Source of the DNA: Desulfobacterales bacterium
GTDB taxonomy: Bacteria; Desulfobacterota; Desulfobacteria; Desulfobacterales; SpSt-501
Direction of reading: 5' to 3'
DNA length: 64,000 nt
Assembly (NCBI GenBank): GCA_030834695.1
Contig: JAUQXK010000127.1
Location: forward strand, 70,827-134,826
The notes beneath the pieces are model-generated. The model worked only from the letters and a program-made list of their open reading frames with translations. It ran no database searches and was not told where the DNA came from. How positions within the stretch are numbered: position 1 is the first letter of the stretch; every line of letters begins with the position of its first letter. This document shows positions 45,126-64,000 of this stretch, piece by piece. The position numbers and the translations under genes were made by a program.

Positions 45126-45158
45126 TTAACCATAATCTAACCGGGTCCTAACCGTGTG
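45126..45158 (+). promoter_or_regulatory. three phased direct repeats TTAACC / CTAACC / CTAACC (11-bp period), Pho-box-like
   Basis: Hexamers start at 45126, 45137 and 45148. They are oriented toward phoB (ATG 45421). Confidence 0.5.
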
Positions 45159-45368: not shown

Positions 45369-45420
45369 TTTGCGTATACAGCTGCCTGTACAACAATCAA
45401 CCCCGGCAGGAAGAAATCAT

Positions 45421-47911: not shown

Positions 47912-49024
47912 CTAAAAACGGCAGCAGGGCTGGCAAGCACCGTATTTGGTTAGCACGATCTGCCACACCTGGTTGCTGCGCGCCCGAAATGCGCCGGCGC
48001 AGGAAAGCAGGTAGTACTCCCACATCCGCTTGAACTTCTCGTCGTATCTCACCTGGAGCCCGGGCCATGCCTTCTGGAAATTGCTGTTCCAGGCCATGAG
48101 GGTCTGGTCGTAGTGCGGCCCCAAATTGTGCCAGTCTTCCACCGCAAACAGCCCCTCGATGGATCGGCTGATCTGGGCGATGCTGGGCAGCATGCCGTTG
48201 GGGAAGATGTACTTGGTGATCCAGGGGTCGCACATGCGGGTGGATTCGTTTCCGCCGATGGTGTGCAACAAAAATATGCCGTTGTCGTTCAGGCAGCGGT
48301 GTACGACCCGCATGAACGTCCGGTAATTTTTCCATCCGACATGCTCGAACATGCCGACCGAAACGATTTTATCGAATCGCCCCTGGAGCTCCCGGTAGTC
48401 GCACTCCAGAAAGCGCACGGGCAAGCCTCTGCAGAATTCGGCGGCGTACTGGATCTGCTCGCTCGAAATGTTGACGGCGGTCACTGTGCAGCCATAGATC
48501 TCTGCCGCGTATTTCGCAAACCCTCCCCAACCGCAGCCAATGTCCAGGACGCGGTCTGTTCGGGCCAGCGCCGTTTTACGGCAGATCAGATCGAGCTTTT
48601 TCTGCTGGGCTTGGTCCAAGTCGGCGGTGCCTTCGAAGTAGGCGCAGCTATACTGGTTGTAGGAGTCGAGAAATGAAAGGAACAGGTCGTTGTCGAGCTC
48701 GTAGTGGCGTTTGGCAACGATGCGCGCGCGCGCTTTCGACTGGAGGTTCAACAGGAGGCCGGGCAGCAGCAGTGGAAGGTATTTCACCCCCCCTTTTAAA
48801 GACACATCCAGCTGCGATCTCAGGATGCGGCATATGAATTCATCCGTCCGGCTGCAGTCCCACCACCCGTCCATGTATGCTTCGCCGAGCCCCAGATTCT
48901 TCTCCCGCAGGGCGCGTGCGAAAAAGCGCTCGTCGTGGACGGTGATGTCCCAAGGGTTCGTCCCGCCGATGGCCACCCCGGCCCGGGAAAGCAGGTTTTC
49001 GACCATCTGCCGGTGACGGGTCAT
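47912..49024 (-). CDS. cfa: cyclopropane-fatty-acyl-phospholipid synthase
   Basis: HYELDNDLFLSFLD; SAM motif VLDIGCGWGG; GAAGGAGG RBS. Confidence 0.9.
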   Translation of the reverse strand: MTRHRQMVENLLSRAGVAIGGTNPWDITVHDERFFARALREKNLGLGEAYMDGWWDCSRTDEFICRILRSQLDVSLKGGVKYLPLLLPGLLLNLQSKARARIVAKRHYELDNDLFLSFLDSYNQYSCAYFEGTADLDQAQQKKLDLICRKTALARTDRVLDIGCGWGGFAKYAAEIYGCTVTAVNISSEQIQYAAEFCRGLPVRFLECDYRELQGRFDKIVSVGMFEHVGWKNYRTFMRVVHRCLNDNGIFLLHTIGGNESTRMCDPWITKYIFPNGMLPSIAQISRSIEGLFAVEDWHNLGPHYDQTLMAWNSNFQKAWPGLQVRYDEKFKRMWEYYLLSCAGAFRARSNQVWQIVLTKYGACQPCCRF

Positions 49025-50049: not shown

Positions 50050-50138
50050 CGTGCCTGCCAAGGCCGTTTCGTCCACTCGCGTCAGTGTGAGCATATCTTG
50101 TTTTCCCGGAAGTTACTAATCGGTGCAGGATAAGTAAA

Positions 50139-50210
50139 GCCCGCCTTAAAGTCGGGCAGGCCAATGATGGTTTTGGCCCGCCCGTATTGAAATAGGCGGC
50201 GACGCCTATT
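50139..50210 (-). terminator. cluster of three hairpins immediately downstream of pstS (attenuator/terminator-like)
   Basis: On the minus-strand RNA: AAUAGGCG-UCGC-CGCCUAUU (spans the stop codon), GGGCGGGCC-N12-GGCCUGCCC, and GCCCG-N9-CGGGC followed by UUUACUUAU. Confidence 0.4.
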
Positions 50211-51258
50211 TCACCTCGGTTACCGTTTTCAATGCCTTGACGTTTTCACCCACCTGTTTACGCTCGGCCTCCGGCAGCGGAATCAAGCCTTTTTCGCTGA
50301 GGTAGCCGTCCTTGCCCCAGGCCTTCTCGCTCGTGAACTCGGCCAGATACTCTTTGATGCCGGGGATCACCCCCACGTGCGCCTTCTTGACATAGAAGAA
50401 CAGCGGGCGTGACAGCGGGTATTTGCCGCTGGCGATGTTCTCGAAGCTCGGCGGGTTGCCGTCCACAAAGGAGCCCTGGATCTTGTCGGTGTTCTGATCC
50501 AGGAAACTGAATCCGAAGACACCCAGCGCGTTCGGGTTCGCCCCCAGCTTCTGAACGATGAGGTTGTCGTTCTCGCCGGCTTCGACGTAGGCCCCGTCCT
50601 CGCGGATCGATGAAAACACCTTCTGGAATTTTTTCCCGTCCTCTTTGGAGAGCTTTTTCAATCCTTCGAACTTGAGGGCGCCCGATTCCATGGCCAGCTC
50701 CACAAAGGCGTCACGGGTGCCGGAAGTCGGTGGCGGACCCAAAACCTCGATCTTGACGTCCGGAAGCGATGGGTTGACGTCTTTCCAGGTCTTATAGGGG
50801 TTGGCCACCAGGCCCTCCCCTCCCTTGGGGTCCGGCACGTCCTTGGCCAGAGCCAGGAAGATGTCCTTGGTGGTCAGCTTCAGCCCCGCCGCTTTTTGGG
50901 AGTTGGCCACCACGATGCCGTCGTAGCCGATTTTCACTTCGACGATGTCCGTCACCCCGTTCTTCTGGCAGGTTTCGAACTCGGACGCCTTGATGGCGCG
51001 CGAGGCATTCGACATGTCGGGGTGCTGAACGCCGACCCCGCCGCAGAACAGCTTGAACCCGCCGCCGGTGCCGGTGGACTCGATTTTGGGAGACTTGAAC
51101 GACCCGGCCTTGCCGAACTTCTCGGCGACCACCGTGGCAAACGGGTAAACCGTCGAGGAGCCGACGATGCTGATGCTGTCCCGCTGTTGCGCCTGAACCA
51201 TTCCCGCCGTGGCCGCAATAAGCGCAACTACTATAGATAATACAACTGCTTTCTTCAT
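50206..51258 (-). CDS. pstS: phosphate ABC transporter substrate-binding protein
   Basis: Signal peptide. IVGSSTVYPF; TGTGGG. AAGGAGG RBS. Confidence 0.85.
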   Translation of the reverse strand: MKKAVVLSIVVALIAATAGMVQAQQRDSISIVGSSTVYPFATVVAEKFGKAGSFKSPKIESTGTGGGFKLFCGGVGVQHPDMSNASRAIKASEFETCQKNGVTDIVEVKIGYDGIVVANSQKAAGLKLTTKDIFLALAKDVPDPKGGEGLVANPYKTWKDVNPSLPDVKIEVLGPPPTSGTRDAFVELAMESGALKFEGLKKLSKEDGKKFQKVFSSIREDGAYVEAGENDNLIVQKLGANPNALGVFGFSFLDQNTDKIQGSFVDGNPPSFENIASGKYPLSRPLFFYVKKAHVGVIPGIKEYLAEFTSEKAWGKDGYLSEKGLIPLPEAERKQVGENVKALKTVTEVK

Positions 51259-51333: not shown

Positions 51334-51354
51334 GGTTGTTAACTTCATATTAGG
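51334..51354 (-). promoter_or_regulatory. Pho-box-like direct repeat CCTAATATGAAGTTAACAACC
   Basis: Half-sites CTAATA and TTAACA 11 bp apart on the minus strand, about 80 nt upstream of the pstS ATG. Confidence 0.45.
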
Positions 51355-51363
51355 ATTTCATTT

Positions 51364-51389
51364 GGTAAGCCGACGCACGTCGGCTTACC
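51364..51389 (-). terminator. perfect hairpin overlapping the pstA stop codon
   Basis: GGUAAGCCGAC-GUGC-GUCGGCUUACC (11-bp stem). Weak U tract (AAAUGAAAU). Confidence 0.45.
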
Positions 51390-52680
51390 ACCGGCGTTCG
51401 AATTTTTTCCGCAGGATGATGGCCCCGGCGTTCATTACCACCAGAAACGCCAGCAGCACCATGATGGCGGCCGAGGTCCGCTCCACGAAAGCCCGCTCCG
51501 GGCTGTCCGACCACAGGTAAATCTGCACCGGCAATACCGTTGCGGAGTCCGTGAAGCCTTTGGGGATATCCACGATAAACGCCACCATGCCGATCATTAG
51601 CAGCGGCGCGCTCTCGCCCAGCGCACGCGCCATGCCGATGATGGTGCCCGTCAGCATGCCCGGCAGGGCCAGCGGCAGCACGTGGTGTACCACCATCTGC
51701 ATCTTGGAGGCGCCCACGCCCAGGGCGGCCTCGCGGATGGACGGCGGAACGGCTTTCAGCGCCGAGCGGCTGGCGATGATGATGGTGGGTAGCGTCATGA
51801 GCGTCAGCACCAGTCCTCCGACCAGCGGCGCGGAGCGCGGCAGCCCGAAAAAATTCAGGAAAACCGCGAGCCCCAGCAGCCCGAACACGATCGAGGGCAC
51901 TGCAGCCAGATTGTTGATGTTGACTTCGATCAGGTCGGTCCAACGGTTCTTCCGGGCGAATTCCTCCAGGTAAACGGCGGCGGCCACCCCGATCGGAAAC
52001 GACAGACTCAAGGTGATCAGCAGGGTGAAAAACGAGCCGGAAACCGCACCCCAGACACCGGCCAGCTCCGGTTCGCGCGAGTCGCCGGCGCTGAGAAAGG
52101 TGGTGTTGAAGCGGCGCTCCAGGCGCCCCTCGGATTCGAGCTGTTCGATCCAGGCGATCTGCTTGTCCGACACGCGCCGCTCGGCTTCGGGCAGGTCGCG
52201 CCGGAAATGGCCCTTGATGAGCATATCGACATCGTCGTCGGCCAGCAGCCAGACCTCGGCCCCCCGGCCCACCAGATCGGGGTCCTTCAACACCATGTCC
52301 CGCAATCGGTAGACGCTGCCGCTGCTCATCAGCGCCGTCAGCTGACGCTTATCCTGTCGTCCGTCCACCTGCGGAAACTTTTTGAAGAGCGCTTCGCGCA
52401 CGAGGGCGGCGTAGTCCGCGTTCACCAGAGTGTCCTGCTGGATCACCGCCGGGTCGAAAACGATCGGCAGCCGGATGGACGTTTGCCAGAATGCCGAATA
52501 GCCCTTGGCGACGATGCTGACGAAGAGCAGCGCCAGGAACATCAGGCTCAGCACGATCGCGGCCAGTCCGTAGAAGCGAAACCGCCGTTCGGCGCGGTAG
52601 CGGCGCTTGAGGCTGCGATTGACGATATCGATGGTCCGCTGGGGTTCCGGAGCGGCTGCGGTGTCGATCGGGCTATTCAT
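51385..52680 (-). CDS. pstA: phosphate ABC transporter permease PstA (long form)
   Basis: Six or more TM helices. Permease core ...REAALGVGASKMQMV... . Overlaps pstC by 8 nt. Confidence 0.85.
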   Translation of the reverse strand: MNSPIDTAAAPEPQRTIDIVNRSLKRRYRAERRFRFYGLAAIVLSLMFLALLFVSIVAKGYSAFWQTSIRLPIVFDPAVIQQDTLVNADYAALVREALFKKFPQVDGRQDKRQLTALMSSGSVYRLRDMVLKDPDLVGRGAEVWLLADDDVDMLIKGHFRRDLPEAERRVSDKQIAWIEQLESEGRLERRFNTTFLSAGDSREPELAGVWGAVSGSFFTLLITLSLSFPIGVAAAVYLEEFARKNRWTDLIEVNINNLAAVPSIVFGLLGLAVFLNFFGLPRSAPLVGGLVLTLMTLPTIIIASRSALKAVPPSIREAALGVGASKMQMVVHHVLPLALPGMLTGTIIGMARALGESAPLLMIGMVAFIVDIPKGFTDSATVLPVQIYLWSDSPERAFVERTSAAIMVLLAFLVVMNAGAIILRKKFERRW

Positions 52681-54073
52681 ACTGTTCTCGGTATTTTCGG
52701 ACGACGTACAGGGCGATCACGTTGAGGCAAAGGGTGACGATGAACAGGATCAGCCCCAGCGCGAAGGCGGCCAATGTCTTGGGGCTGTCGAATTCCTGGT
52801 CGCCGACCAGCAGGGTTACGATTTGGACGGTCACCGTGGTCACCGCTTTGAGCGGGTTGACGGTCAGGTTGGCCGAAAGCCCGGCGGCCATGACCACGAT
52901 CATGGTCTCGCCGATGGCCCGCGACACCGCCAGCAGCACCCCGCCGATGATCCCCGGGATGGCGGCCGGCACGATCACCTGGCGGATGGTCTCCGACCGG
53001 GTGGCTCCCAGGCTGTAGGCTCCGTCGCGCAGCGACTGCGGCACGGCGTTGATGAAATCGTCGGACAGCGAGGATACGAAGGGAATGATCATGATGCCCA
53101 TGACCAGTCCGGCGGCCAGCGCGCTCTCCGAGGCGACGTCCAGGCCGAGCCGGCTGCCCCAGTCGCGGATGACGGGCGCCACCGTCAGGGCCGCGAAAAA
53201 CCCGTAGACCACCGTGGGGATTCCCGCGAGCACCTCGATCAGCGGTTTGGCGACGGCCCGCAGGCGCTTGCCGGCATATTCGGACAGATAAATGGCGGAC
53301 ATCAAGCCGATCGGAACCGCCACCACCATGGCGATGGCCGAAATCAGGATCGTGCCCAGGAAGACCGGAACGGCCCCGAAGGCGCCCGAGGATCCCACCT
53401 GGTCCGCGCGGATGGCCATCTGAGGGCTCCAGTCCAGACCGAACAGGAATTGGGTGATCGGGATCACCTTGAAAAACCGGATGGCTTCGTAGAGCACGGA
53501 CAGAATGATGCCGATCGTCGTAAAGATGGCGATGGTGGAGCAGGCCACGAGAAGGACGGTTAGAATAGCCTCCACCTGGTTACGCGCCCGCAGACCGGCT
53601 GTGATCCGGCCGCGAACCAGCACGGCGATAGCGGTCAGCAAAGCGATCGAGACCGCGGCCAGCGCATGGTTGCTGATGGACCGCAGCCGGTGGTAATGGT
53701 CGGCGGCGGCCTGGATGGCGGGCTCGGCGGCCTGCGAGGCAAAGCTGCCGCTCTCGATGTTGCGGATGTCGTTGATGACGAGGTTCATCCGATCCGGGGC
53801 CAGGCTGCGGATCGCTTCGGGCAGCTCCTTCACCACCAGGTGAGTGATGACCTGGTTCTCGAAGACCAGCCAGAATCCGAAGATGAGCAGGGCCGGGATG
53901 CCGCACCAGAGAGCGGTCAGCGCGCCGTGGTAGGTCGGTCGAGAGTGCAGCTTGGCCGCCCCTTCGGCGCGGCCGGATAGAGCGAAGGCCTTGCGGCGGC
54001 CGAAATAATAGGCTGCCGTAGAAAGCCCTAAGAGTGCAATCAGCAAATAGGCCGGAGGCATTGAAAACCCCAT
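52673..54073 (-). CDS. pstC: phosphate ABC transporter permease PstC (long form)
   Basis: Permease core ...RDGAYSLGATRSETI... . Start ambiguous (54073 or 54061). The longest ORF starts at 54124. Confidence 0.85.
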   Translation of the reverse strand: MGFSMPPAYLLIALLGLSTAAYYFGRRKAFALSGRAEGAAKLHSRPTYHGALTALWCGIPALLIFGFWLVFENQVITHLVVKELPEAIRSLAPDRMNLVINDIRNIESGSFASQAAEPAIQAAADHYHRLRSISNHALAAVSIALLTAIAVLVRGRITAGLRARNQVEAILTVLLVACSTIAIFTTIGIILSVLYEAIRFFKVIPITQFLFGLDWSPQMAIRADQVGSSGAFGAVPVFLGTILISAIAMVVAVPIGLMSAIYLSEYAGKRLRAVAKPLIEVLAGIPTVVYGFFAALTVAPVIRDWGSRLGLDVASESALAAGLVMGIMIIPFVSSLSDDFINAVPQSLRDGAYSLGATRSETIRQVIVPAAIPGIIGGVLLAVSRAIGETMIVVMAAGLSANLTVNPLKAVTTVTVQIVTLLVGDQEFDSPKTLAAFALGLILFIVTLCLNVIALYVVRKYREQYE

Positions 54074-54127
54074 CCTCGATGATGGCAAGATTGATGAGAC
54101 CGTAAAACGTCGTACCGGGTGCAATCG

Positions 54128-54257: not shown

Positions 54258-54278
54258 GATTGTTAGAGCCATGTTAGG
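54258..54278 (-). promoter_or_regulatory. Pho-box-like direct repeat CCTAACATGGCTCTAACAATC
   Basis: CTAACA half-sites 11 bp apart on the minus strand upstream of pstC. A third inverted copy (CTAACA at 54285-54290) forms TGTTAG-N7-CTAACA. Confidence 0.5.
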
Positions 54279-54351: not shown

Positions 54352-54570
54352 TCACTCATAGAAAATCTCAGGACTTGCCGACAGGAAATGCGCCTGTCGT
54401 GACATCAAGGAAAATCTCGGCGCGGCTGACTCCAGGTCCGACCGGGAGGAGGCAAAGCACAAATCACGGCCCAACGCGGAAACGTAAACGACCCGTTTGC
54501 TGCATTTCAAGCATGTGGGATTGTTCTTGTCGGATTCACCCAAGAAACACGTGCGGCAAGGACTGGTCAT
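54352..54570 (-). CDS. small CxxC...CxxC zinc-ribbon protein (72 aa), function unknown
   Basis: MTSPCRTCFLGESDKNNPTCLKCSKR... . AGGAAGGA RBS before the internal ATG. Confidence 0.45.
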   Translation of the reverse strand: MTSPCRTCFLGESDKNNPTCLKCSKRVVYVSALGRDLCFASSRSDLESAAPRFSLMSRQAHFLSASPEIFYE

Positions 54571-54718
54571 GGATTCCTTCCTTTCGTTAGGAGACACCGG
54601 TTGACAAGAAACCGGCGTGGAGCTGCCGGTTTATGGAAACGAAGGTATCCGTTGGAGGTTATGCATTGATGAGCCCGGTGTGAGAAAACCATGCCCCTTC
54701 CGCTCAGGAAACCAAGAA

Positions 54719-54757
54719 TTAACCGCTGCCTAACCCGCGCAGAACAGTCTCCTGTCA
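54719..54757 (+). promoter_or_regulatory. four phased half-sites TTAACC / CTAACC / AGAACA / CTGTCA (11-bp period), Pho-box-like
   Basis: Hexamers start at 54719, 54730, 54741 and 54752, 40-75 nt upstream of ATG 54796. Confidence 0.5.
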
Positions 54758-54795: not shown

Positions 54796-57189
54796 ATGGG
54801 TTTTATCGTTGGATTCGAAAATTCGCAGGCGCTGGATCCGCGCATCGTTGGGCGCAAATTCGCAGCCTTGGCCAGGGCAGCGCGCGAAAACTTCGATGTG
54901 CCGGAGGCTGTAGCGATCGGAACCAAGGCGCATGCGCATTTCCTCGCTACCGGGAGCTGGCCCGACGGTTTGCGAGAGGAGGTGATCAATGCCGCCCTTC
55001 GGCTGGATATCTCACAAGGGCTCTCCATCCGTTCGTCGGCGACACTCGAGGACCTCGCCGGGCAGAGCTTCGCCGGTCAATACCGAACATTTCTGGAGGT
55101 GAACAGCGAGCGCGAACTCCTGCAGCGGATCGAGGAGTGCTGGGGCAGCGCCCGGTCCGAAACCGTGCGCAGCTACCTCCAGGCGCTGAACGTGCAGGGA
55201 ACCAATACCGAAACCCCTTTGTTGGCCGTCATCGTCCAACGCATGGTGAACGCATCGGTCGCCGGCGTGGCCTTCAGCCGCGACCCGCTGCGCCCTGACC
55301 GCGACGAAAGAGTCATCGAAGCCGTCAAGGGCCACGCCGAAGGACTGGTCAGCGGCCAGCGCTCCCCTTGCCGGGTGCGGGTTGGCCGCGATGGCCGAGT
55401 CTCCGTCGAAAGCCGTTCGACTTCTTATTTGCGGCTGTCCCGAAAAACCCCGTGGCGCGACATCGCCGGACTCATCGGGCGGCTGGAAAATTCCTATGGC
55501 GGGCAAGCGCTCGACGTGGAGTGGGCCGTCGATCACCGCAAGGCCCTCTGGTTGCTTCAGGTCCGGCCGATCACCACCTTGGCACAGGAGGGAATGCTGC
55601 CGCCGGCAGGCGCATGGACCCGCAAAATAGCTGATGATCTTTGGGCGGACCGGCTCGAACCCTTCATGGCCGAGGTGATGCTCAGCCATGCTCCGAGGTT
55701 CGATCTGTCGCGCATCAGCCGGCTGGCCGGCATAGAGCCGGTGCAGCCGGCCTTGTCAGTGATCAACGGCTATCTGTATGTCAATTGCGACAGCGTCCGA
55801 CGCCTCATCGCACATATTCCGGGGCCCCTGCGGTTCAAGGATCTGGGGACGTTGCTGCCCGCCGGCACGCGGATAGTCGACATTCCCCCGCCCCGTGCGT
55901 TGACCCTGGTGCGCCTTTTTCTCAGAGCGGTCCTCTTGCCTCTGAATGAACCCGGGGTGATCCCCTTCTTATGCCTGCGAAGCACCCCGCGCACCATCCG
56001 CCGGCTGCGAGCGCGCATGCACCCGGTGGAATCCAGCGCAAATGCCACCGCCGGCGCCCTGCTTCAGCGGCTGCGTCATGATGTCGAAACGTTGGCTCTG
56101 GTCCAGGAAAACAATCAATGGCCCTATTTTCATGCCACGCTCTTTGCCTGGATTCTGCGCTGGGTGTCCGTTGAGCGGTTGCAGATGACCGGATCCGGAT
56201 TCTTGGGGCTGATCAGTCGAGGTTCCGCCAACGTAACGATCGTCATCGAGAACTGGTTCCGCCGGACGGCGCAGCATATCGCCTCAAACCCTGCTCTGGC
56301 CGAACGATTTGTTGCCGATCCGCCCGAGGAATTAGTCCCCTCTTTGCCGGCCGAGCTTCGCGCAGAGATTCATTCATTCCTGCAGCGCTACGGTTTCCGG
56401 TCTCGGCATCGCACGCTGCTGATCAAGCGCTGGGCCGAAGCGCCGGAGGAAGTAATCGGCATCCTTCAGTCTCTGGTCCGTCATCCCCAGGGCGCGGAAG
56501 CAGCCCTGAAAAGCACCAAACACGGCCATCACGGACCATCGCCCAGCTGCGTCTTCGGGCCCGCCCTATGGCTGCTCGCGGTCTTGACCCGTCGCTTCTT
56601 GGACCTGCGGGAGGAGCTGCGCTTTTTGCTGGACGAAGTGCTTTACCGTATTCGCTGCGATCTGCTCGCCCTGGGAATGCATTCGGGGCTGGGCGATGCG
56701 ACATTCTTCATGAAGCCGCAGGAGATCGAGAAGATGGCCTTGGGTCAAATGGAGTTGCAGGAAGCGGCTCAACTGGCATCCCAGCGCCGGCGGCGCTTTT
56801 TGAATCCGGTCGAACCGAGCACCTTCTGGGTGGATGGCCGTCCCGAGTTTGATTTCTGCGCCGGCGGCACGGTCCTGCGGGGCATCGGAACCAGCCCCGG
56901 GCATGCCACCGGCCGGGCGGTCATCGTTGAAGACCCCGGCGCCAACAAAATCCGTCGAGGCGACGTCGTCGTGGCACGCCATACCGACCCGGGATGGACG
57001 CCTATCTTCAGCGTCATCGGCGGCATCGTCATGGAAGAGGGCGGCCTGCTCAACCACTGCTCCATCGTCGCTCGGGAGCTCGGCATCCCCTCCATCGTCG
57101 GAGTGGGCCGCGCCACCCAGCTCATTCCGGAAGGAGCGCGGGTGACCATTGACGGCGGAGCGGGAGTGGTGCGGATTGAGGAAGGATAG
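54796..57189 (+). CDS. PEP-utilising enzyme of rifampin-phosphotransferase-like architecture (ATP-grasp PPDK_N domain + central domain + swivelling His domain, no TIM barrel)
   Basis: N-terminal VGRKFAALARA...SIRSSATLEDLAGQSFAGQY. C-terminal GIGTSPGHATGRAVIV...ARHTDPGWTPIF...GGLLNHCSIVARELGIPSIVGV. ATG 54796 follows a GGAGGA RBS. Confidence 0.8.
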   Translation: MGFIVGFENSQALDPRIVGRKFAALARAARENFDVPEAVAIGTKAHAHFLATGSWPDGLREEVINAALRLDISQGLSIRSSATLEDLAGQSFAGQYRTFLEVNSERELLQRIEECWGSARSETVRSYLQALNVQGTNTETPLLAVIVQRMVNASVAGVAFSRDPLRPDRDERVIEAVKGHAEGLVSGQRSPCRVRVGRDGRVSVESRSTSYLRLSRKTPWRDIAGLIGRLENSYGGQALDVEWAVDHRKALWLLQVRPITTLAQEGMLPPAGAWTRKIADDLWADRLEPFMAEVMLSHAPRFDLSRISRLAGIEPVQPALSVINGYLYVNCDSVRRLIAHIPGPLRFKDLGTLLPAGTRIVDIPPPRALTLVRLFLRAVLLPLNEPGVIPFLCLRSTPRTIRRLRARMHPVESSANATAGALLQRLRHDVETLALVQENNQWPYFHATLFAWILRWVSVERLQMTGSGFLGLISRGSANVTIVIENWFRRTAQHIASNPALAERFVADPPEELVPSLPAELRAEIHSFLQRYGFRSRHRTLLIKRWAEAPEEVIGILQSLVRHPQGAEAALKSTKHGHHGPSPSCVFGPALWLLAVLTRRFLDLREELRFLLDEVLYRIRCDLLALGMHSGLGDATFFMKPQEIEKMALGQMELQEAAQLASQRRRRFLNPVEPSTFWVDGRPEFDFCAGGTVLRGIGTSPGHATGRAVIVEDPGANKIRRGDVVVARHTDPGWTPIFSVIGGIVMEEGGLLNHCSIVARELGIPSIVGVGRATQLIPEGARVTIDGGAGVVRIEEG

Positions 57190-57193
57190 AAGA

Positions 57194-57218
57194 GGAAGGC
57201 GGAAGTTGGAAGGCGGAA
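57194..57218 (+). repeat. purine-rich tandem repeat GGAAGGCGGAA x2 in a convergent gap
   Basis: Copies at 57194-57204 and 57208-57218, plus GGAAGG at 57225. No hairpin. Confidence 0.8.
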
Positions 57219-57234
57219 ATCAAAGGAAGGAGAG

Positions 57235-58287
57235 CTAACGGCGTGAGGGAAAGTCGAAAATAGTCTGGGCCCAGGCGCGGCCAGAAAGCCTTTCAACATC
57301 CTGCCATCGGCCCGCCCCGACCCAGTCCGCGATCATGCGGGCCACGTTGGGGTATCGTACGGCCGGAACCGGCCGATCAGCCAGAAAACCACCTACCGTA
57401 TCCGCATCTAGGCGCTGCATCACGACCCCCAGTTTCAGCTCCGCGAGCGCCTTGGCGTTGGACATTTGCTCCATCTGGCGAGCCAGCGGTTTGACCAGGA
57501 TTTTCTTGCATAGATGAAGCGCTTCGCTGGCCAGCTCGAACCCCGCATTGGTGATGACTCCGCCGCTCTCGGCGAGATCCTTCAGAAAACCTTGCCGCGA
57601 GTAAGTCCGCAGATGCAGATGGCCTTCGTCACTGGCAGCGGGAAGCTGGTGATAGATATAAAACTGGTAGTTCTCGAAAGGCGCCAGCAACTGTCGAATA
57701 TCCTCAATTTCTTCGAAAGGGAGGTATACGAGGATCTTGTTCGCAAGGGCCGGGGATTCAACCGGCATGTGCATCGGTATGACCGGCGGAAGGATCGGCT
57801 GGTCGAAGTGGTGCCAATGCAGACCCAGGCAATGGTCGGCGGGAGCGAAGTGACGGATGACATATTGCGCGACCGGGTCGAACCCCGCGATGGGGATCCG
57901 GTGGCGAAACGCATATTGGTGGCCGATGCCGATGGAGGGCAGTTGGTGGCGCCGGGCGATGCGGGCGGTGACCGGCTCGAAATCGGTGATCACCACATCG
58001 ACGTCTCGGGCGTCAAAGTAGCGGATATCGGAGTAAAAACGGAGAAGATTCAGGCGGCGGGCGGTCTGGAAGTATTGCAGGCGTCCGCGCCGGGTTGAAA
58101 ACGTCAGGCCCTCCATGGCGACGAAGGGCTCGAACACCTCCATCTCCCAGAGCAACGCCGGATCCCTCCCGCTGAGCACCACCTTTACGTCATGTCCGTC
58201 GGCTTTCAGATAACGGATGATTTCCCGAGAACGGCTGATGTGGCCGTTGCCGGTGCCCTGGACCCCGTATAGAATTCGCAAGCCCAC
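57235..58287 (-). CDS. MJ1255/TIGR00661-type glycosyltransferase (GT-B)
   Basis: MGLRILYGVQGTGNGHISRSREI N-terminus characteristic of this family. Confidence 0.75.
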   Translation of the reverse strand: MGLRILYGVQGTGNGHISRSREIIRYLKADGHDVKVVLSGRDPALLWEMEVFEPFVAMEGLTFSTRRGRLQYFQTARRLNLLRFYSDIRYFDARDVDVVITDFEPVTARIARRHQLPSIGIGHQYAFRHRIPIAGFDPVAQYVIRHFAPADHCLGLHWHHFDQPILPPVIPMHMPVESPALANKILVYLPFEEIEDIRQLLAPFENYQFYIYHQLPAASDEGHLHLRTYSRQGFLKDLAESGGVITNAGFELASEALHLCKKILVKPLARQMEQMSNAKALAELKLGVVMQRLDADTVGGFLADRPVPAVRYPNVARMIADWVGAGRWQDVERLSGRAWAQTIFDFPSRR

Positions 58288-58288
58288 T

Positions 58289-58816
58289 TCAACCCGCCGC
58301 TGCGATTCCGCACAGAGCGCTCAGGGTGCCGAGACACATGCCGGCCATCACGTCGGTCGGGTAGTGGACTCCCAGGTAAATGCGCGCCACTCCCACAGCC
58401 AGCGCCCACGAACCAACGACCGGGGAAAGATAGGGGTAGCAGTTGCCGATGAGGGTGGCGACCAGAAAAGCGGCCGCCGTGTGCCCGGAAGGGAAGCTGA
58501 ATCGGTCGCTGGGCTTCACCCGGCCTTGAACACCGGCCAGGGTTTCACAGGGCCGATCGCGTTTCACGAACTGTTTGACGGTTTTGTAGACGGGCAGCTC
58601 GATCGCAAAAGCCACAGCCGCCGCCGTCCAAAACGAGCGGCCGACCGCCGGATCCACGGCCAGCAGCACCATCGCCACCAACGGATAGAGGAAGCCGTCG
58701 GCGGTCCTGGAAATTCGCGGCATGGCGGCCGTCATCAGCCGTTGGCCGTGCAGGTCGAAGATCGCGCTCAGCCATACAACATCCCAACGCGTGATTCGAG
58801 CGACGAGGGTTCGCAT
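58289..58816 (-). CDS. PAP2-family lipid phosphatase
   Basis: KxxxxxxRP (KQFVKRDRP), PSGH (SFPSGHTA) and SRxxxxxHxxxD (ARIYLGVHYPTD) motifs. Confidence 0.85.
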   Translation of the reverse strand: MRTLVARITRWDVVWLSAIFDLHGQRLMTAAMPRISRTADGFLYPLVAMVLLAVDPAVGRSFWTAAAVAFAIELPVYKTVKQFVKRDRPCETLAGVQGRVKPSDRFSFPSGHTAAAFLVATLIGNCYPYLSPVVGSWALAVGVARIYLGVHYPTDVMAGMCLGTLSALCGIAAAG

Positions 58817-58866
58817 AGGCGACTCCTTATTGGATCGGAGTCTATCCCCTCCCGGTTAAGACCGGA

Positions 58867-60735
58867 TTAGGTCCCGGTTTTTTTCCTGCTAGCGGCGAGG
58901 GGCAGCGTCATCAGGGGATGGCCGGCGGCTCGTAGGATCTGAGTCGGCGCGGGGAGCACCCGGAGCTTATCGGATGTCACGCCTTTTTGCTCGAGGTCGC
59001 GCTGAACGTCAATCGATGGAACATAAACCGCATCCACCTGGTTGTAGAACCACACCAGGTACTTCCAGCTGAGGTCCTCGATCAACCCATCCCGGGTAAG
59101 GACCCGAGCCAGGCACGCCATGGCATCGGAATAGCTGGCCTCGACGGGGAGCTTCAGCGAGCGCGCGATTAAAAGACCGGCCAGGCCGGTCGGGCCGGCG
59201 CTGGCCAGATGAAGCCGGCGAATGTCGTTCTTGAAGCAGTGATCGAACATCTCAAGAACCGGCGGGTAGACCAGGCGCTGCCCCGGCAGGTCGCTGAACT
59301 CATAAACGCCGATCGGTGTGAAGGCATGCACACCGGGATGGCCGGCGGGATCGCAGGTGAGGATGACGCCATTTTCGAGGTTCGAGACCGCTGAAGAAAA
59401 ACCGATCGCGCTCCGGCCCTCTTCAAGCGTGTCGGCAAAAATGGCGCAGGCGGTGTTCGATTCGACGCCGGGTGTCTGGCTCAGTTGCGATTGGACCGCA
59501 CGGGAGAGCTGACGCTGTGCACGGTGGTGAGCGAACCCAACGAAGTAGGGGGCCAGCAGCGTGCACAACCCTCCGGCGGAGCCGATGGTGTGAAAGATGC
59601 TGAAGAGATTCGCTCCGGAAAAATGGCCGATGAGATGGTCGGCGAACCCCAGCAACATCCGGTTGGACATCTTGTTGATGAAGTGGAACCATCGTTCCTC
59701 CAGGCGCTGGGATAGGCGATCCCCCTTCCGGGGCAGCTCGAACAGTTCGGGTTCTTCTTCGATCAGCCGGGCGGACTCCTTCTTGAGCAGGTCCACCAGC
59801 GGCCCGGGGATGCTGCCTTTGATTTTCCGCAGGCGCCGGTACTGCCATAAAAAATGCAGACGGGAAAACAGTCCGCTGTCCTCCTCGCTCGTGCAGCGCA
59901 GGCTGCGATCGACATAGCGCAGGAGGAAATCCTGAGGGACCTGCGGCCCCAGGCTCAGCTTGTGCCGGTAGAACTGGTAGGCGATGCTGTAGAGGTTGTG
60001 GGCAAGCGCCTGGGGAGACGAGGGCCTCTGGATGGTTTCTGCGCGGCCGGCCTCGATCCCGTCCAGAAATCCGTCGACCGAGCCGGCGTCCGGTACTCGG
60101 GTATAGTTGCGCGCGATGCTGAGGGAGCTGTGGTCGTCGGATCCGCCGATGAAGTGCTTGATCCAGCTCTCCGGCCAGAGCGGGGCCAGGCGCTGCTGGT
60201 TCGCCAAGCGATCAATATCACCTGGGGTCAGGCGTTTGAGAATGTTCTCCAGACAGCGGTTGCTCTCGGCGTCGCTGTCGCCGTTCAATTCGAAGATGCG
60301 GAAGAGCAGCAGCAGTTTTTCAAAATGCTGCGGTGTCAGGCGGTCATTGACGGCATAGAACGGGTGAGCGAGCGCGCAGGTGATGGCGGCCTGCTGCAGG
60401 TAGCCGACCAGGTCATAAATACTGGCTCGCAGCTTCTGGATGTCGACATGCTGAGTCTCGGTGATGCGATAGACGAGTACGTGAACCTTGCAGCCGTCCT
60501 CCGGGAAATAGGAAGTGACCTCCTCGCTGATGAAGGTCCCCGGCAAATGCGCGATTTCTAATGCGCCGTCGATTTTGTTGTGGTCCGTGATCGTGACCAG
60601 CGTCATCCCCCGCCGCCGGGCGATATGGTAGACATGCAGCGGCTCGGTAAAGCTCTCCGGGCAGCCGATTTTCTGTAGAAACCACTGAGACGGACGAGTG
60701 GAATACCTTGAGTGTACGTGCAGGTCTGCTTTCAT
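58867..60735 (-). CDS. PHP-domain phosphoesterase fused to an N-terminal half of a GT4-like glycosyltransferase
   Basis: MKADLHVHSRYS...ITDHN PHP metal-binding motifs. C-terminal AGPTGLAGLLIARSLKLPV...KLRVLP resembles a Glyco_transf_4 subdomain, and the protein ends where the catalytic C-half normally starts. Confidence 0.7.
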   Translation of the reverse strand: MKADLHVHSRYSTRPSQWFLQKIGCPESFTEPLHVYHIARRRGMTLVTITDHNKIDGALEIAHLPGTFISEEVTSYFPEDGCKVHVLVYRITETQHVDIQKLRASIYDLVGYLQQAAITCALAHPFYAVNDRLTPQHFEKLLLLFRIFELNGDSDAESNRCLENILKRLTPGDIDRLANQQRLAPLWPESWIKHFIGGSDDHSSLSIARNYTRVPDAGSVDGFLDGIEAGRAETIQRPSSPQALAHNLYSIAYQFYRHKLSLGPQVPQDFLLRYVDRSLRCTSEEDSGLFSRLHFLWQYRRLRKIKGSIPGPLVDLLKKESARLIEEEPELFELPRKGDRLSQRLEERWFHFINKMSNRMLLGFADHLIGHFSGANLFSIFHTIGSAGGLCTLLAPYFVGFAHHRAQRQLSRAVQSQLSQTPGVESNTACAIFADTLEEGRSAIGFSSAVSNLENGVILTCDPAGHPGVHAFTPIGVYEFSDLPGQRLVYPPVLEMFDHCFKNDIRRLHLASAGPTGLAGLLIARSLKLPVEASYSDAMACLARVLTRDGLIEDLSWKYLVWFYNQVDAVYVPSIDVQRDLEQKGVTSDKLRVLPAPTQILRAAGHPLMTLPLAASRKKTGT

Positions 60736-60784
60736 CGGCTTTTCGCATCCATTGGTATGAGTTGGGGGATCGGCCCGCTCGTGC

Positions 60785-62647
60785 TTAACCCGCCTCGGAT
60801 TCATCCACAGAGACACCATGCGTGGTGGCCCCGGCTCCGTGGTAGGATAGAAACGTCGCGGCGCCGGCAACGCCCATATAGCGCTGGAGGGTCTTCACAT
60901 CGGTTTGAGTCAGATCCACCACGATCAGCCCATCCATCACGCGGCCGAAGGTTCGGTCGATGTTGAACGCCAGAAGCTGCCCACCGAGGTTCAGGTAGTG
61001 GCGCAGCAAGACCGGAACGTCGCGTTGTTTGAATTCGACATCCGCAATGACCGAGCACATCTCCTTGAAATCCTGAAAACAGCTGGGGGGCGGGCTGTGA
61101 CCGCACCCCCGCACCCGAACCGGCCGGAAATTCGCCGGATGTCGCGGTCGGACCATCACGGCGAGGTCTTTGGCTTGGCTGTGCTGCAGCAACGTGGTGG
61201 CGATCAGGTGGCGCGAAAGGTCGCTGTAATCGCGGCTGATGCTGACCGGTCCGAAGAGCATGCGGTAGCGGGGATGGCGGGCGATGAAGGCCCCGATCCC
61301 CTTCCACAGCAGCAGCAACGGTGAATAGGAACGCTGGTATTCCGGGCGCACGAACGAACGCCCCATTTCCAGGGCCGGGCCGAGCCGGCGGAAAAACTCC
61401 ATGCGGCTGTCGAAAAGGGTGCTCGAATAAAGTCCGCTGCGGCCGTGGCGTTCGATGATCCGGTCGGTGGCGCCGACGCGATAGGCGCCGACGATTTCAG
61501 CCGCCTCCGCATTCCAGATGAAAAGATGCCGGTAATGCGCGTCGAACCGGTCCAGGTCCAGGGGTTTGCCGGTGCCCTCGCTGGCCGCACGGAAGGTGAG
61601 CTCCCGCAGACGTCCGATCTCCTGCATGACGAGCGGGATCTGCTCCGCGGTCGCCTGCCAGACCGACTGGACGCCGCTTTGAGCGAGGCATTGGTCGGTC
61701 GGCAGCTGCTCGATTTCTCGACGGCAGGCGTTGGTCTCCGGCGGCGTCGCCAGGGGGCGAGTTTTTCGGAAGACGGCGATGGCCGCCGGCGTGGACCCCC
61801 GTTTTTCCCGCCGGGTCGGGTGGCCCAGAAGATAGGTTCGCCAGCGCAGGTACGCCATTAAATCCTCGTCGCCGGCATAACGCTGAAGCCAACGGAATGG
61901 GATCAGGCGGCCGATGTCGACCGGAACCGTGCGGCCGCGCATGCCCATGAGCTGCCGAGCCAGCAGCGCCGTGCGCAGCCGGGGATGAATGAGCCCGGCC
62001 GCCTGAAAGCCGGGGCCGTTGTGCCCCCGGAAGAACACCGGCAGGACCGGCGCGGCGGTGCGGCGGATGAGCCGGCCGATGGTGGGGCTCCAGGGCGGAT
62101 CGGCCACCTCAAGCGGAGACATTTTTAAATGCGAAACCTCTCCGGCCGGAAAGACGAGCAGCATGCCGCCGCTTCTGAGCCAGTGCAGGGCCTCCCGCAT
62201 GGGGCCGATATTGGTACGAGCCGACCCGCTGCGGTTGAACGGATCGACCGGGATGGTCAGATCGCGCAATTGTGGAATCCGGTTCAGAAGAAGGTTCGCC
62301 ACGATTTTCACATCCGGCCGGTGGCTCAGGAGGATGTCCGCCATGATGACGCCTTCAATTCCGCCGAACGGATGATTGCCGACGACGACGGCCGCGCCCT
62401 TCTTGGGGATATTCTCCAAATCCTCCGGTTTGACCTGCGGCCGGACATCCATTTGACGCAGAGCTTCATGCATGAACGCATGCGCGCTGCCGTGCGCCTG
62501 GATCCGATCGTACAATGCCGCGCATTGCCGCAGGCCGAGGAGATGTTCCAGCGGACCGGCCACGATCTCGAAAATCTTGCGGTGCTCCTTTGGCACCGCT
62601 TTTGGAACGATTGAAAAAATAGGGTCCTCGAAAAACGCTTCTTCCAT
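60785..62647 (-). CDS. bifunctional PlsC-like O-acyltransferase + OlsB-like GNAT N-acyltransferase (OlsF-type aminolipid synthase architecture)
   Basis: N-terminal half VVGNHPFGGIEG...FPAGEVSH. C-terminal half LRELTFRAASEGTGKPLDLDRFDAHYRHLFIW...IVGAYRV. Start taken at MEEAFFEDP (GGGAGGGG RBS). Confidence 0.75.
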   Translation of the reverse strand: MEEAFFEDPIFSIVPKAVPKEHRKIFEIVAGPLEHLLGLRQCAALYDRIQAHGSAHAFMHEALRQMDVRPQVKPEDLENIPKKGAAVVVGNHPFGGIEGVIMADILLSHRPDVKIVANLLLNRIPQLRDLTIPVDPFNRSGSARTNIGPMREALHWLRSGGMLLVFPAGEVSHLKMSPLEVADPPWSPTIGRLIRRTAAPVLPVFFRGHNGPGFQAAGLIHPRLRTALLARQLMGMRGRTVPVDIGRLIPFRWLQRYAGDEDLMAYLRWRTYLLGHPTRREKRGSTPAAIAVFRKTRPLATPPETNACRREIEQLPTDQCLAQSGVQSVWQATAEQIPLVMQEIGRLRELTFRAASEGTGKPLDLDRFDAHYRHLFIWNAEAAEIVGAYRVGATDRIIERHGRSGLYSSTLFDSRMEFFRRLGPALEMGRSFVRPEYQRSYSPLLLLWKGIGAFIARHPRYRMLFGPVSISRDYSDLSRHLIATTLLQHSQAKDLAVMVRPRHPANFRPVRVRGCGHSPPPSCFQDFKEMCSVIADVEFKQRDVPVLLRHYLNLGGQLLAFNIDRTFGRVMDGLIVVDLTQTDVKTLQRYMGVAGAATFLSYHGAGATTHGVSVDESEAG

Positions 62648-62722
62648 AGCCCCTCCCGGTTTTATCGGTGCCGTACGAAGCTCTTGTTGCCGGTTTAAAA
62701 ACGCTCCGATCATAAGGTCGGC

Positions 62723-62746
62723 GATTTAGGCGGGGATTAGAGAACC
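62723..62746 (-). promoter_or_regulatory. Pho-box-like direct repeat CTCTAATCCCCGCCTAAATC followed by TATGAT
   Basis: CTAATC and CTAAAT 11 bp apart on the minus strand. A TATGAT -10-like hexamer lies 9 nt downstream. About 80 nt upstream of the proposed olsF-like start. Confidence 0.4.
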
Positions 62747-62831
62747 GCTAAAAATGAGTGAATCCAGCACGGGTCAAGGAGGAAGCGGCAGCGCTTCCTG
62801 CCAACCGGGCAAACGATCCCCTCATCCGAAA

Positions 62832-62848
62832 CTAACCCGGCTCAAACC
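62832..62848 (+). promoter_or_regulatory. weaker Pho-box-like repeat CTAACCCGGCTCAAACC
   Basis: CTAACC and CAAACC 11 bp apart, oriented toward the LysE-like and MGDG-synthase-like genes. Confidence 0.3.
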
Positions 62849-62957
62849 TGGGCGCGATAGGCATAAACGAAGCCGCTCGCCTATTTTTCCGCCGATCGTC
62901 CCTCTTTTATAGAGGTGGACTCGGGGGATATTGAAATCGACGCCCCTGGAAGGATAG

Positions 62958-63587
62958 ATGGAAATCGCTTTCTGCTTGAAAGGAATCGCCGTAGGATTCG
63001 TGTTGTGCGCCCCGCTGGGCCCGGTCGGCGTTCTCTGTCTCCAGCGGACCATGGCTGCCGGCCGCCTGGCCGGATTCTTCTCAATCTTGGGCGCGGCCGT
63101 GGTCGACGGATTCTACGGGATGGTGGCCGGGTTCGGCATAAGCGTCATCGGAACCCTTCTGGATGAGGGTCGATTCTGGTTCCAGCTTTTCGGAGGGATG
63201 GTTCTGGTGGTGATGGGCATCCGGCTTTGCATGGCCGCGCCCGCATCCTGCCCTTCTCGGAACCATGGCAGAAGCCTGCTGGATGCGTTCCTTTCGACGG
63301 CCGCTCTGATGCTCTCGAACCCATTTCCGATCCTGGTCATCAGCGCCGCCCTGTCGGCCTTCACCGCCGGCGGACTCGGGAGCGGTATTGCGGATATTCC
63401 GCTGTTTGCGCTCGGTTTGTTCCTGGGCTCGTTGCTGTGGTCACCGCTCCTGGTGGGTGCGTCGTCCTGGGTCGGTCGCATGATTCAGCCGCATCACCTG
63501 AGGCTGATCAGCCGGGCCTGCGGAGCTGCCATGGTCTGCTGCGGGCTCCTGCTGGGTGCTGCGTCGCTGGCGGTTGCTTCGATGTAG
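62958..63587 (+). CDS. LysE/RhtB-family amino-acid exporter
   Basis: 209 aa with 5-6 TM helices. N-terminal GFVLCAPLGPVGVLCL pattern. Confidence 0.75.
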   Translation: MEIAFCLKGIAVGFVLCAPLGPVGVLCLQRTMAAGRLAGFFSILGAAVVDGFYGMVAGFGISVIGTLLDEGRFWFQLFGGMVLVVMGIRLCMAAPASCPSRNHGRSLLDAFLSTAALMLSNPFPILVISAALSAFTAGGLGSGIADIPLFALGLFLGSLLWSPLLVGASSWVGRMIQPHHLRLISRACGAAMVCCGLLLGAASLAVASM

Positions 63588-63660
63588 GCCCGATGGACCA
63601 CCTTTCGAACGTGTGCTATTTTATCGAAATCGATCGCATCGAGAAAAAAGGCCGGTATCC

Positions 63661-64000
63661 ATGGCGAAGGGTCGTCCAGCCAAAATTCTGATTCTATCCG
63701 CCTCCGTGGGCGGAGGCCATCTGCGGGCGGCCGAAGCCATGGAACTGGCGTTGCGGCAAACCGCCCCGGACGCTGCGATCCGCAACATCGACGTCCTGAC
63801 CCTGGCGAACAAGGCCTTTCGGCGCATCTACGGCAAAGGCTACCTGGACGTCGCCAGCCGCGCCCCGCATTTCCTCGGCTACGTCTATGATCTGCTCGAC
63901 CGCCCCAGGGAGAAGGATGGCGAATTCGAGCCCGACCGCCTGCGGGTTGCCCTGGAAAAGCTGAACATGCAGCCGTTTCTCAGGCTGCTGAAATCGGAGC
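63661..64000 (+). CDS. MGDG-synthase-family (GT28) diacylglycerol glycosyltransferase, N-terminal part (truncated by the window end)
   Basis: MAKGRPAKILILSASVGGGHLRAAEAMELAL... is the typical N-terminus of processive/monoglycosyl-DAG synthases. The frame stays open to 64000. Confidence 0.7.
   Translation, partial: MAKGRPAKILILSASVGGGHLRAAEAMELALRQTAPDAAIRNIDVLTLANKAFRRIYGKGYLDVASRAPHFLGYVYDLLDRPREKDGEFEPDRLRVALEKLNMQPFLRLLKSE

Follow-up and report, generated by a model that had tools for sequence, protein, structure and literature searches.

A putative phosphate-starvation lipid-remodelling cluster with a truncated PHP-glycosyltransferase protein beside the pst genes of a Desulfobacterales bacterium

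We analysed a 64-kb stretch of DNA from a Desulfatibacillum-like Desulfobacterales bacterium (hereafter the window) and studied a gene cluster at positions 57235-64000, which is physically joined to pstSCAB-phoBR. We consider it probable that this cluster is a PhoB-controlled membrane-lipid remodelling unit, most likely one that would exchange phospholipids for ornithine lipids and glycolipids once phosphate is exhausted. On the minus strand, the order is an olsF-like gene, a gene for a PHP domain joined to the N-terminal half of a GT4 glycosyltransferase (PHP/GT4-N), a PAP2 gene, and an MJ1255-type glycosyltransferase (GT) gene, with gaps of 49, 50, and 1 nt, while lysE and a GT28 gene are divergent from this operon (Table 1). 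An initial annotation made from the sequence had described this content, and we found its open reading frames (ORFs), Pfam/NCBIfam domains, gaps, and phoB, phoR, cfa, and pst neighbours all to be present. Its view of a phosphate-linked locus for phosphorus-free lipids is likewise borne out by Pho boxes, synteny with pst, phoH, phoU, and psiE, and the validated homologues Dde_3661 and Dde_3613.

Exchanging phospholipids for lipids without phosphorus is a major strategy under nutrient stress, and in anoxic sediments such lipids are used as a geochemical marker that phosphate is limiting. The general phenomenon is already known. In the PlcP-Agt pathway of Sinorhizobium, Agrobacterium, SAR11, and Pseudomonas aeruginosa, a Pho-controlled phosphoesterase removes the headgroup and an adjacent GT makes monoglycosyl or glucuronosyl diacylglycerol (MGDG or GADG); the logic is the same, and ornithine lipid synthesis is co-induced, as proposed for the window cluster. 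On the other hand, neither a PlcP-type metallophosphoesterase (PF00149) nor an intact GT4 Agt is encoded among the genes at 57235-64000. The candidates here are the PHP and PAP2 phosphoesterases together with the GT1-like MJ1255 and GT28 transferases, which are probably inverting rather than retaining, and it is plausible that PHP and/or PAP2 stand in place of PlcP.

In sulfate reducers, only two genes have so far been tied to lipid replacement, both in Desulfovibrio alaskensis. A transposon mutant of Dde_3613 ("Agt") grows poorly and forms neither MGDG nor GADG when phosphate is limiting, and a mutant of Dde_3661 (OlsF) lacks ornithine lipids (PMC5193443). Homologues of the window PHP/GT4-N protein fall into two length classes, short forms of ~615-635 aa with only the GT4 N-half and long forms of ~815 aa with a complete GT4. 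Among the long forms is a protein of Oleidesulfovibrio (Desulfovibrio) alaskensis (P0219 = ABB40406.1, 816 aa, at ~3.573 Mb of CP000112), whose gene has those for a PP-loop ATPase and a TIGR00726-type protein, as well as trpG, as neighbours on the G20 chromosome. Since table S4 of Bosak et al. 2016 annotates Dde_3611, Dde_3616, and trpG likewise (PMC5193443), we identify ABB40406.1 as Dde_3613. The window protein is 44% identical to it over 610 aa, and both have a PHP domain with identical metal ligands, a helical linker with a hydrophobic helix, and a GT4 N-half. However, Dde_3613 is an 816-aa protein with a complete GT4, whereas the 622-aa window protein is without the donor-binding half and has degraded motifs in its remaining GT half (GT-N); the window gene is followed by PAP2 and the MJ1255 GT, while the Dde_3613 gene in G20 is beside neither olsF nor pst. 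The initial annotation had placed the PHP-GT outside the described enzyme set, and this has to be corrected, since the full-length PHP-GT4 is Dde_3613 and is already tied experimentally to glycolipid synthesis. The full-length fusion and OlsF in Desulfobacterales are thus already known, OlsF homologues being common in this order (PMC12971839); new are the overlooked PHP domain and its persistence after repeated loss of the transferase. The PHP domain receives 0 mentions in the main text of Bosak et al. 2016 (PMC5193443), and our literature search returned no paper discussing the PHP domain of a Dde_3613-type protein and nothing on PHP with glycolipid. Two genes downstream of Dde_3613, we noted a 238-aa metallophosphoesterase (Dde_3615; L084:13073-13789, -; Metallophos_2), which we rejected as a PlcP because it is weakly YfcE-type and shows no low-phosphate fitness defect in the published table; a literature search on PlcP with Desulfovibrio found nothing.

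The 622-aa window protein consists of PHP at ~residues 1-235, a linker at 236-425, and the GT4 N-half at ~426-595. Glyco_transf_4 covers residues 504-640 of the long ORF, with no match to Glycos_transf_1 (PF00534). The Pfam PHP model gives no match on this protein, and we base the PHP assignment on the ligand set HxH, DH, E, H, H, DDH together with the AlphaFold/Foldseek fold. Across 55 aligned sequences, the metal ligands H6, H8, D51/H52, E72, H85, H124, and D200/D201/H202 are invariant or nearly so. Sequence searches of PHP plus linker and of the MJ1255 GT against PDB sequences gave nothing usable, and a profile search returned GT4 C-domains only, so a fold search was used instead. In the AlphaFold model (pLDDT 81.7, pTM 0.82), the N-domain matches the RNase AM PHP domain, PsfC, TM0559, and BAD_1165, and the C-domain matches the N-halves of the GT4 enzymes BshA, MshA, and GlgM. 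The linker aligns throughout the family and contains a conserved hydrophobic helix at 377-402, which suggests membrane attachment. Short proteins end exactly at the junction of the two GT-B Rossmann halves in the alignment, and since the donor-binding half is lost, the window protein cannot itself be a glycosyltransferase. No GT4 C-half was found in any frame near the window gene or the short genes of its clade, which rules out an assembly or frameshift artefact; L047 and L079 differ in being frameshifted long forms.

We surveyed 80 species-level loci of related PHP-GT genes (numbered with an L). Either pst or phoH was present within 10 kb in 32 of the 80 loci (40%), across many families, which is far above chance for a gene set occurring once or twice per genome. 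The co-occurrence that the initial annotation had proposed to check was also found, with olsF-like genes in 16/80 loci and PAP2+MJ1255 in 12/80. Every window-clade short form with enough flank has PAP2 and the MJ1255 GT downstream (L001, L004-L012, L060, L086, L087), usually with PIN-PhoH2 intervening and with a PPDK-like gene and pstCAS farther along, and the MJ1255 GT always directly follows PAP2 in the loci seen. Since the long-form loci L013, L015, and L016 share the PhoH-PAP2-MJ1255-PPDK-pst neighbourhood, PAP2 and MJ1255 were present before the GT4 half was lost. Short forms usually stand beside another complete glycosyltransferase, which is MJ1255 with PAP2 in the window and GT28 elsewhere. 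In L090, a distant short form (38% identity) has an MGDG-synthase-like GT28 gene 4 nt downstream that is homologous to the GT28 at the window end (30% identity, E 9e-45), and we read this as an independent pairing of the truncated protein with GT28 in a Pho context. The gene order there (L090:5567-12533) is psiE, short PHP-GT-N, GT28, Amphi-Trp protein, response regulator, OprO/P porin, and pstS. The PIN-PhoH2 gene (an RNA helicase/nuclease-type PhoH) lies between PHP-GT and PAP2 in L001 (11979-13172), L004, L005, L009, L011-L013, L016, and L060, and directly after the long-form PHP-GT4 of other lineages (L003, L019, L065, L078); no copy was found within the window.

In the window, a Pho box of the form CTAAC[A/C]-N5-CTAAC[A/C] precedes pstC, with variants before pstS, phoB, and the PPDK-like gene, and we regard this CTAAC-type consensus as new and specific to the clade. 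The pstC box is found at the same place in seven orthologous loci (L001, L004, L009, L011, L013, L015, L016), followed by a conserved CATAC. Upstream of olsF, ~75-100 nt before ATG 62647, a 40-nt block, TTCACTCAATTTTAGCGGTTCT-CTAAC-N6-CTAAA, is common to four loci amid an otherwise diverged spacer, and it is this conserved footprint, not a position weight matrix (PWM) score, that makes the case for an olsF-side box. No box was found in the olsF-PHP gap of the window, which fits co-transcription of the two genes. Relatives in which olsF and PHP-GT run divergently carry strong boxes upstream of PHP-GT itself, in the form of TTAAT-N6-CTAAC in L001, L004, and L009 and of four 11-bp repeats in L013, L015, L016, and L060. 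When the two divergent promoter regions were searched simply for direct repeats, none of the Pho-box type turned up, and loose Pho-box matches in the whole window numbered 18 against 10.9 expected (at least 18 in 3/100 shuffles), which is not significant alone. Scanning 57000-64000 for sigma-70 and terminator signals gave no excess, and none of the intergenic gaps held a terminator. In a Desulfovibrionales metagenome-assembled genome (MAG), GTCAY is repeated five to six times, with an 11-bp spacing, in the spacer of divergent olsF and PHP-GT4 genes (L054:9700-10000); such Pho boxes are of the E. coli type and differ from the CTAAC boxes of the window clade.

The OlsF-like protein matches PF19576/PF01553 (Acyltransf_2/Acyltransferase) at 78-296 and PF13444 (Acetyltransf_5) at 369-470, with a GlsA-like N-half and a GlsB/OlsB-like C-half. 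It resembles OlsF of Serratia proteamaculans and Dde_3661, in which a PlsC-type O-acyltransferase N-half is joined to an OlsB-like N-acyltransferase C-half, and it matches the OlsF model NF052615 nearly end to end (398.8 bits, E 4e-119, profile positions 17-569 of 570). However, the score is under the equivalog cutoff of 620, so likeness to OlsF does not fix its amino-acid specificity, and its O-acyltransferase motif, NHPFGGIEG, has Glu where PlsC-type enzymes have Asp. Only the first 113 codons of the GT28 gene are in the window; a full-length orthologue (L012:6085-7254) has MGDG_synth and Glyco_tran_28_C, the same domains as UgtP/YpfP and the plant and cyanobacterial MGDG synthases, but stays under equivalog cutoffs, with 217 bits against 500 for diglucosyl-diacylglycerol synthase. 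lysE is found beside olsF in L006, L009, L010, and L011 as well, and a link of LysE to ornithine is pure speculation.

Together, these findings suggest the following mechanism. Under phosphate limitation, PhoB would bind CTAAC-type Pho boxes and turn on the olsF-PHP-PAP2-GT operon and probably also the divergent lysE-GT28 unit, and the OlsF-like enzyme would make an ornithine-type aminolipid. The PHP protein, presumably descended from a Dde_3613-type PHP-GT4 synthase but without the nucleotide-sugar-binding half, would have metal-dependent phosphoesterase activity alone and would be kept at the membrane through the hydrophobic helix of its linker. PHP and PAP2 would strip phosphate or phospho-headgroups from phospholipids or phosphatidate, yielding diacylglycerol (or ether-glycerol cores) and free phosphate for the adjacent Pst system. 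The MJ1255 GT, tightly coupled to PAP2, and GT28 would then add hexose or glucuronic acid to give phosphorus-free glycolipids. Induction by phosphate limitation, all substrate assignments, and the pairing of phosphatases with transferases are what we infer from sequence.

A role of PHP in diacylglycerol supply is suggested by a "Rosetta-stone" argument, since PHP is fused or adjacent to three unrelated families of lipid GTs, always in Pho contexts, and since it has been kept under selection after the fused transferase was lost; the pairing of PHP with a glycosyltransferase also parallels the plcP-agt operons of Proteobacteria. Under phosphate limitation, Desulfatibacillum alkenivorans, which among cultured relatives with lipid data is the closest, replaces nearly all of its phospholipids with glucuronosyl-glycerolipids, with ester and ether cores, and a cysteine-containing aminolipid. 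Since two MAGs labelled Desulfatibacillum carry the cluster (L008, L009), it is an obvious candidate for this chemistry. We also advance, tentatively and with well under even confidence, a joint proposal in which the PHP domain would be a hitherto unnoticed, membrane-bound phospholipid phosphoesterase, a non-homologous replacement of PlcP that makes diacylglycerol, releases phosphate, and forms a module fused or paired with GT4, GT28, or MJ1255, and in which PAP2+MJ1255 would be a second new route to glycosyl- or glucuronosyl-glycerolipids, maybe the basis of the glucuronosyl ether/ester lipids of Desulfatibacillum.

Several observations weigh against lipid remodelling as we propose it. We know of no PHP-family enzyme that acts on glycerophospholipids, and a literature search for PHP-family lipid phosphatases found none. 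PAP2 proteins of this size are usually undecaprenyl diphosphate, phosphatidylglycerophosphate, or lipid A phosphatases with periplasmic active sites. D. alkenivorans is not reported to make ornithine lipids, and a plcP or full agt may lie elsewhere in the genome, beyond the 64-kb window. Three short forms (L071, L089, L091) are without any glycosyltransferase nearby, and in one relative PAP2-MJ1255 persists although only a 108-aa fragment of the PHP gene is left, so the modules appear separable. The olsF-side box is weak, with 3 mismatches to the clade consensus, and a PWM trained on pstC boxes stays below 9 bits everywhere in the olsF/lysE intergenic region. The Pho-box-like repeats that the initial annotation had seen in this divergent region thus hold up in part: they are degenerate and missed by the PWM scan, while a footprint containing them is conserved in four loci. 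Finally, the four "METAGENOMIC RNA-Seq" runs that contain this sequence gave flat, low, DNA-like depth over genes and spacers alike.

The main rival, which we think unlikely, is that PHP acts on soluble phosphoesters, such as phosphoethanolamine or glycerol-3-phosphate released by another phospholipase, or UDP and nucleotide by-products, and so recovers phosphate, while diacylglycerol comes from PAP2 or an unseen PlcP. The PHP enzymes that have been characterised cleave soluble substrates, as phosphomonoesterases or nucleases; the closest folds (RNase AM, PsfC, TM0559) are consistent with such a role, and the PHP protein stands alone in some loci. On the other hand, salvage would not readily account for the fusion or adjacency of PHP to three lipid GT families (GT4, GT28, and MJ1255), and the conserved linker helix suggests a protein attached to the membrane. 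The metallophosphoesterase two genes from Dde_3613 in G20 could be counted in favour of salvage, but it is YfcE-like rather than PlcP-like and has no fitness defect under phosphate limitation.

The proposed role of PAP2 and the MJ1255 GT meets a different alternative. The catalytic motifs of PAP2 are intact: K81-x6-RP (K81QFVKRDRP), P109-SGH, and R145-x5-H-x3-D (A144RIYLGVHYPTD). It is thus like the PgpB/LpxE/BcrC-type enzymes, small polytopic membrane proteins with KX6RP, PSGH, and SRX5HX3D motifs, but all equivalog scores are far under cutoff (<=55 bits vs 177-261), and unlike those enzymes it is translationally coupled, through the 1-nt gap, to a predicted cytoplasmic GT-B glycosyltransferase. 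The latter passes the TIGR00661 cutoff (201.6 bits vs 195.9) and matches PF13528 (E 8e-44), and its AF2 model (pLDDT 85.8) is a complete GT-B with two Rossmann halves. Foldseek returned GT1-like matches at E ~1e-12 (OleD, SnogD, CalG, YojK, plant UGTs), and the nearest structures are GT1 enzymes glycosylating lipophilic small molecules, which makes the MJ1255 GT a candidate lipid (diacylglycerol) glycosyltransferase; our literature search found no described function for any PF13528/TIGR00661/MJ1255 member. We think it likely that PAP2 and the MJ1255 GT form a second, new glycolipid module. Alternatively, and with a lower probability than soluble-ester salvage, the pair could act on another envelope lipid, in undecaprenyl diphosphate recycling or in dephosphorylation and then glycosylation of lipid A, so as to trim outer-membrane phosphate. 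The best NCBIfam matches of PAP2 are undecaprenyl-diphosphatases, PgpB, and LpxE, although the relation is only distant; the MJ1255 family is without a characterised member in the literature searched; and the GT1-like fold accepts many lipophilic acceptors. However, known additions of sugars to lipid A use periplasmic GT-C enzymes, not cytoplasmic GT-B. The PAP2-MJ1255 pair invariably lies together with PHP-GT, phoH, and pst and turns up where the catalytic half of GT4 is gone, and relatives make abundant glucuronosyl-glycerolipids, which likewise speaks against this alternative.

It is improbable, more so than either of the above, that the truncated PHP-GT-N is a functionless relic and that only olsF, PAP2-MJ1255, and GT28 matter at the locus. 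The loss of the donor-binding half fits decay, as does the 108-aa fragment in one relative, and the GT-N motifs of the window clade are indeed degraded (FTDTFYEVNGVA to FADTLEEGRSAIG; GTYHT to ASYSD). However, the PHP ligands are invariant, and dN/dS values among close relatives fall at 0.12-0.31 for each of PHP, linker, and GT-N, which shows that the gene is under purifying selection and is not a pseudogene. The ratio of GT-N to PHP identity is ~1.0 among long forms and 0.64-0.81 among short forms; PHP and linker stay conserved in short forms while the leftover GT half, which probably has a structural role, evolves faster. An exhaustive search with PHP plus linker gave 460 cluster representatives at E<=1e-30, many of which are 590-670 aa long, down to 33% identity, and again have the GT4 N-half only, and the short-form length is kept in dozens of 50-90% identity clusters. 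Truncation has also recurred at the same domain boundary, the short forms falling into three or more lineages of a single clade in which long forms occur too (neighbour-joining tree of PHP plus linker, without bootstrap, so that the count of lineages is approximate). Taken together, these results mark the partial GT4 as a conserved, selected truncation. One variant of the family, P0416 (603 aa), apparently has PHP and linker followed directly by a GT4 C-half (Glycos_transf_1) with no N-half detected, a mirror image of the window truncation. In the one relative with the 108-aa fragment (context of P0336), this Glyco_transf_4 remnant of PHP-GT looks like a further decay step of the fusion gene, while PhoU, PhoH, PAP2, MJ1255 GT, alkaline phosphatase, and pstCASB are intact. 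The last alternative, a cluster for making exopolysaccharide or cell-wall glycan that is beside pst by chance, is largely refuted and hardly credible: database names do read "glycosyltransferase involved in cell wall biosynthesis" and GT4, GT1-like, and PAP2 proteins are common in exopolysaccharide loci, yet the cluster has no flippase, polymerase, chain-length, or sugar-nucleotide genes, the Pho boxes are conserved, the phenotypes of the G20 mutants concern membrane glycolipids and ornithine lipids specifically, and the homologues, which the initial annotation had allowed might be embedded in such unrelated loci, show Pho-gene linkage in 40% of the loci, across many families.

From the locus and its relatives, it is evident that the validated "Agt" is in fact a phosphoesterase fused to a glycosyltransferase, and the short forms are natural "domain deletion" variants, indicating an independent function of the phosphoesterase half. 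The cluster also nominates a first candidate function for the widespread MJ1255/TIGR00661 family, yields with its relatives a Pho-box consensus for the clade, and offers candidate genes for the glucuronosyl ether lipids of Desulfatibacillum, which have so far been without assigned genes.

Table 1. Genes and putative regulatory elements of the cluster and its neighbourhood, in window coordinates
Feature	Position	Strand	Evidence or remark
MJ1255/VC2487-family GT-B glycosyltransferase	57235..58287	-	TIGR00661, PF13528
PAP2 lipid phosphatase	58289..58816	-	PF01569 E 2e-20; several hydrophobic segments
PHP phosphoesterase + GT4 N-half	58867..60735	-	Glyco_transf_4 match, AlphaFold/Foldseek, alignment
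OlsF-like bifunctional O-/N-acyltransferase	60785..62713 (ORF); 60785..62647 from probable ATG	-	Pfam, NF052615
LysE/RhtB-family exporter	62958..63587	+	PF01810 E 6e-16
GT28 MGDG-synthase/UgtP-like glycosyltransferase, N-terminus	63661..64000, cut at window end	+	profile match; L012 orthologue
Promoter footprint upstream of olsF, degenerate repeats CTAAT-N6-CTAAA at 62725-62740	62723..62762	-	alignment of window, L005, L010, L012
Pho-box-like repeat facing lysE/GT28, CTAACC-N5-CAAACC	62832..62848	+	3 mismatches; partly kept in L010, L012
PPDK_N + PEP-utilizer mobile-domain protein (Rph/PigC-like)	54796..57189, probable start ATG 54796	+	Pfam
Pho-box-like repeats upstream of PPDK-like gene, TTAACC-N5-CTAACC-N5-AGAACA	54719..54746	+	GTTAG-N6-GTTAG equivalents in L001, L009, L011
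Small Cys-rich ORF between Pho box and pstC	54352..54597	-	kept in relatives; no Pfam match
Pho box at pstC, exact CTAACA-N5-CTAACA (CTAACATGGCTCTAACAA), defines clade consensus	54260..54277	-	0 mismatches
pstC	52673-54124	-	Pfam DUF3708+BPD_transp_1
pstA	51385-52680	-	Pfam DUF3333+BPD_transp_1
Pho box upstream of pstS (CTAATATGAAGTTAACAA)	51336..51353	-	PWM 17.7 bits
pstS	50206-51258	-	Pfam PBP_like_2
pstB	49195-50094	-	Pfam ABC_tran
cfa, cyclopropane-fatty-acyl-phospholipid synthase family	47912..49024	-	PF02353 CMAS E 4e-82
phoR	45918-47903	+	Pfam HAMP-PAS-HisKA-HATPase
phoB	45370-46113	+	Pfam Response_reg+Trans_reg_C
Pho-box-like repeats upstream of phoB, TTAACC-N5-CTAACC-N5-CTAACC	45126..45153	+	2-3 mismatches to CTAACA-N5-CTAACA; PWM 12.3 bits

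Translation of the PHP gene begins at ATG 60735 (MKADLHVHS) rather than at the TTG that lies upstream of it. For olsF, the start is most likely ATG 62647 (Met23), since a conserved ribosome-binding site is found there and homology in relatives starts there.

Beyond the cluster, the small ORF at 54352-54597 (MTSPCRTCFLGESDKNNPTCLKCSKR...) has two CxxC pairs and is found at the same position in L001, L004, L009, L011, L013, L015, and L016; it may encode a zinc-ribbon protein co-transcribed with pstCA. The PPDK-like protein is nearer to rifampicin phosphotransferase and PigC/RedH than to true PEP synthase, and its gene is a convergent neighbour of PAP2-MJ1255 that is kept in relatives, with an alkaline phosphatase replacing it in one of them. 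cfa is wedged between pstB and phoR and may be co-regulated with the Pho genes, so that acyl-chain modification would go alongside headgroup exchange.

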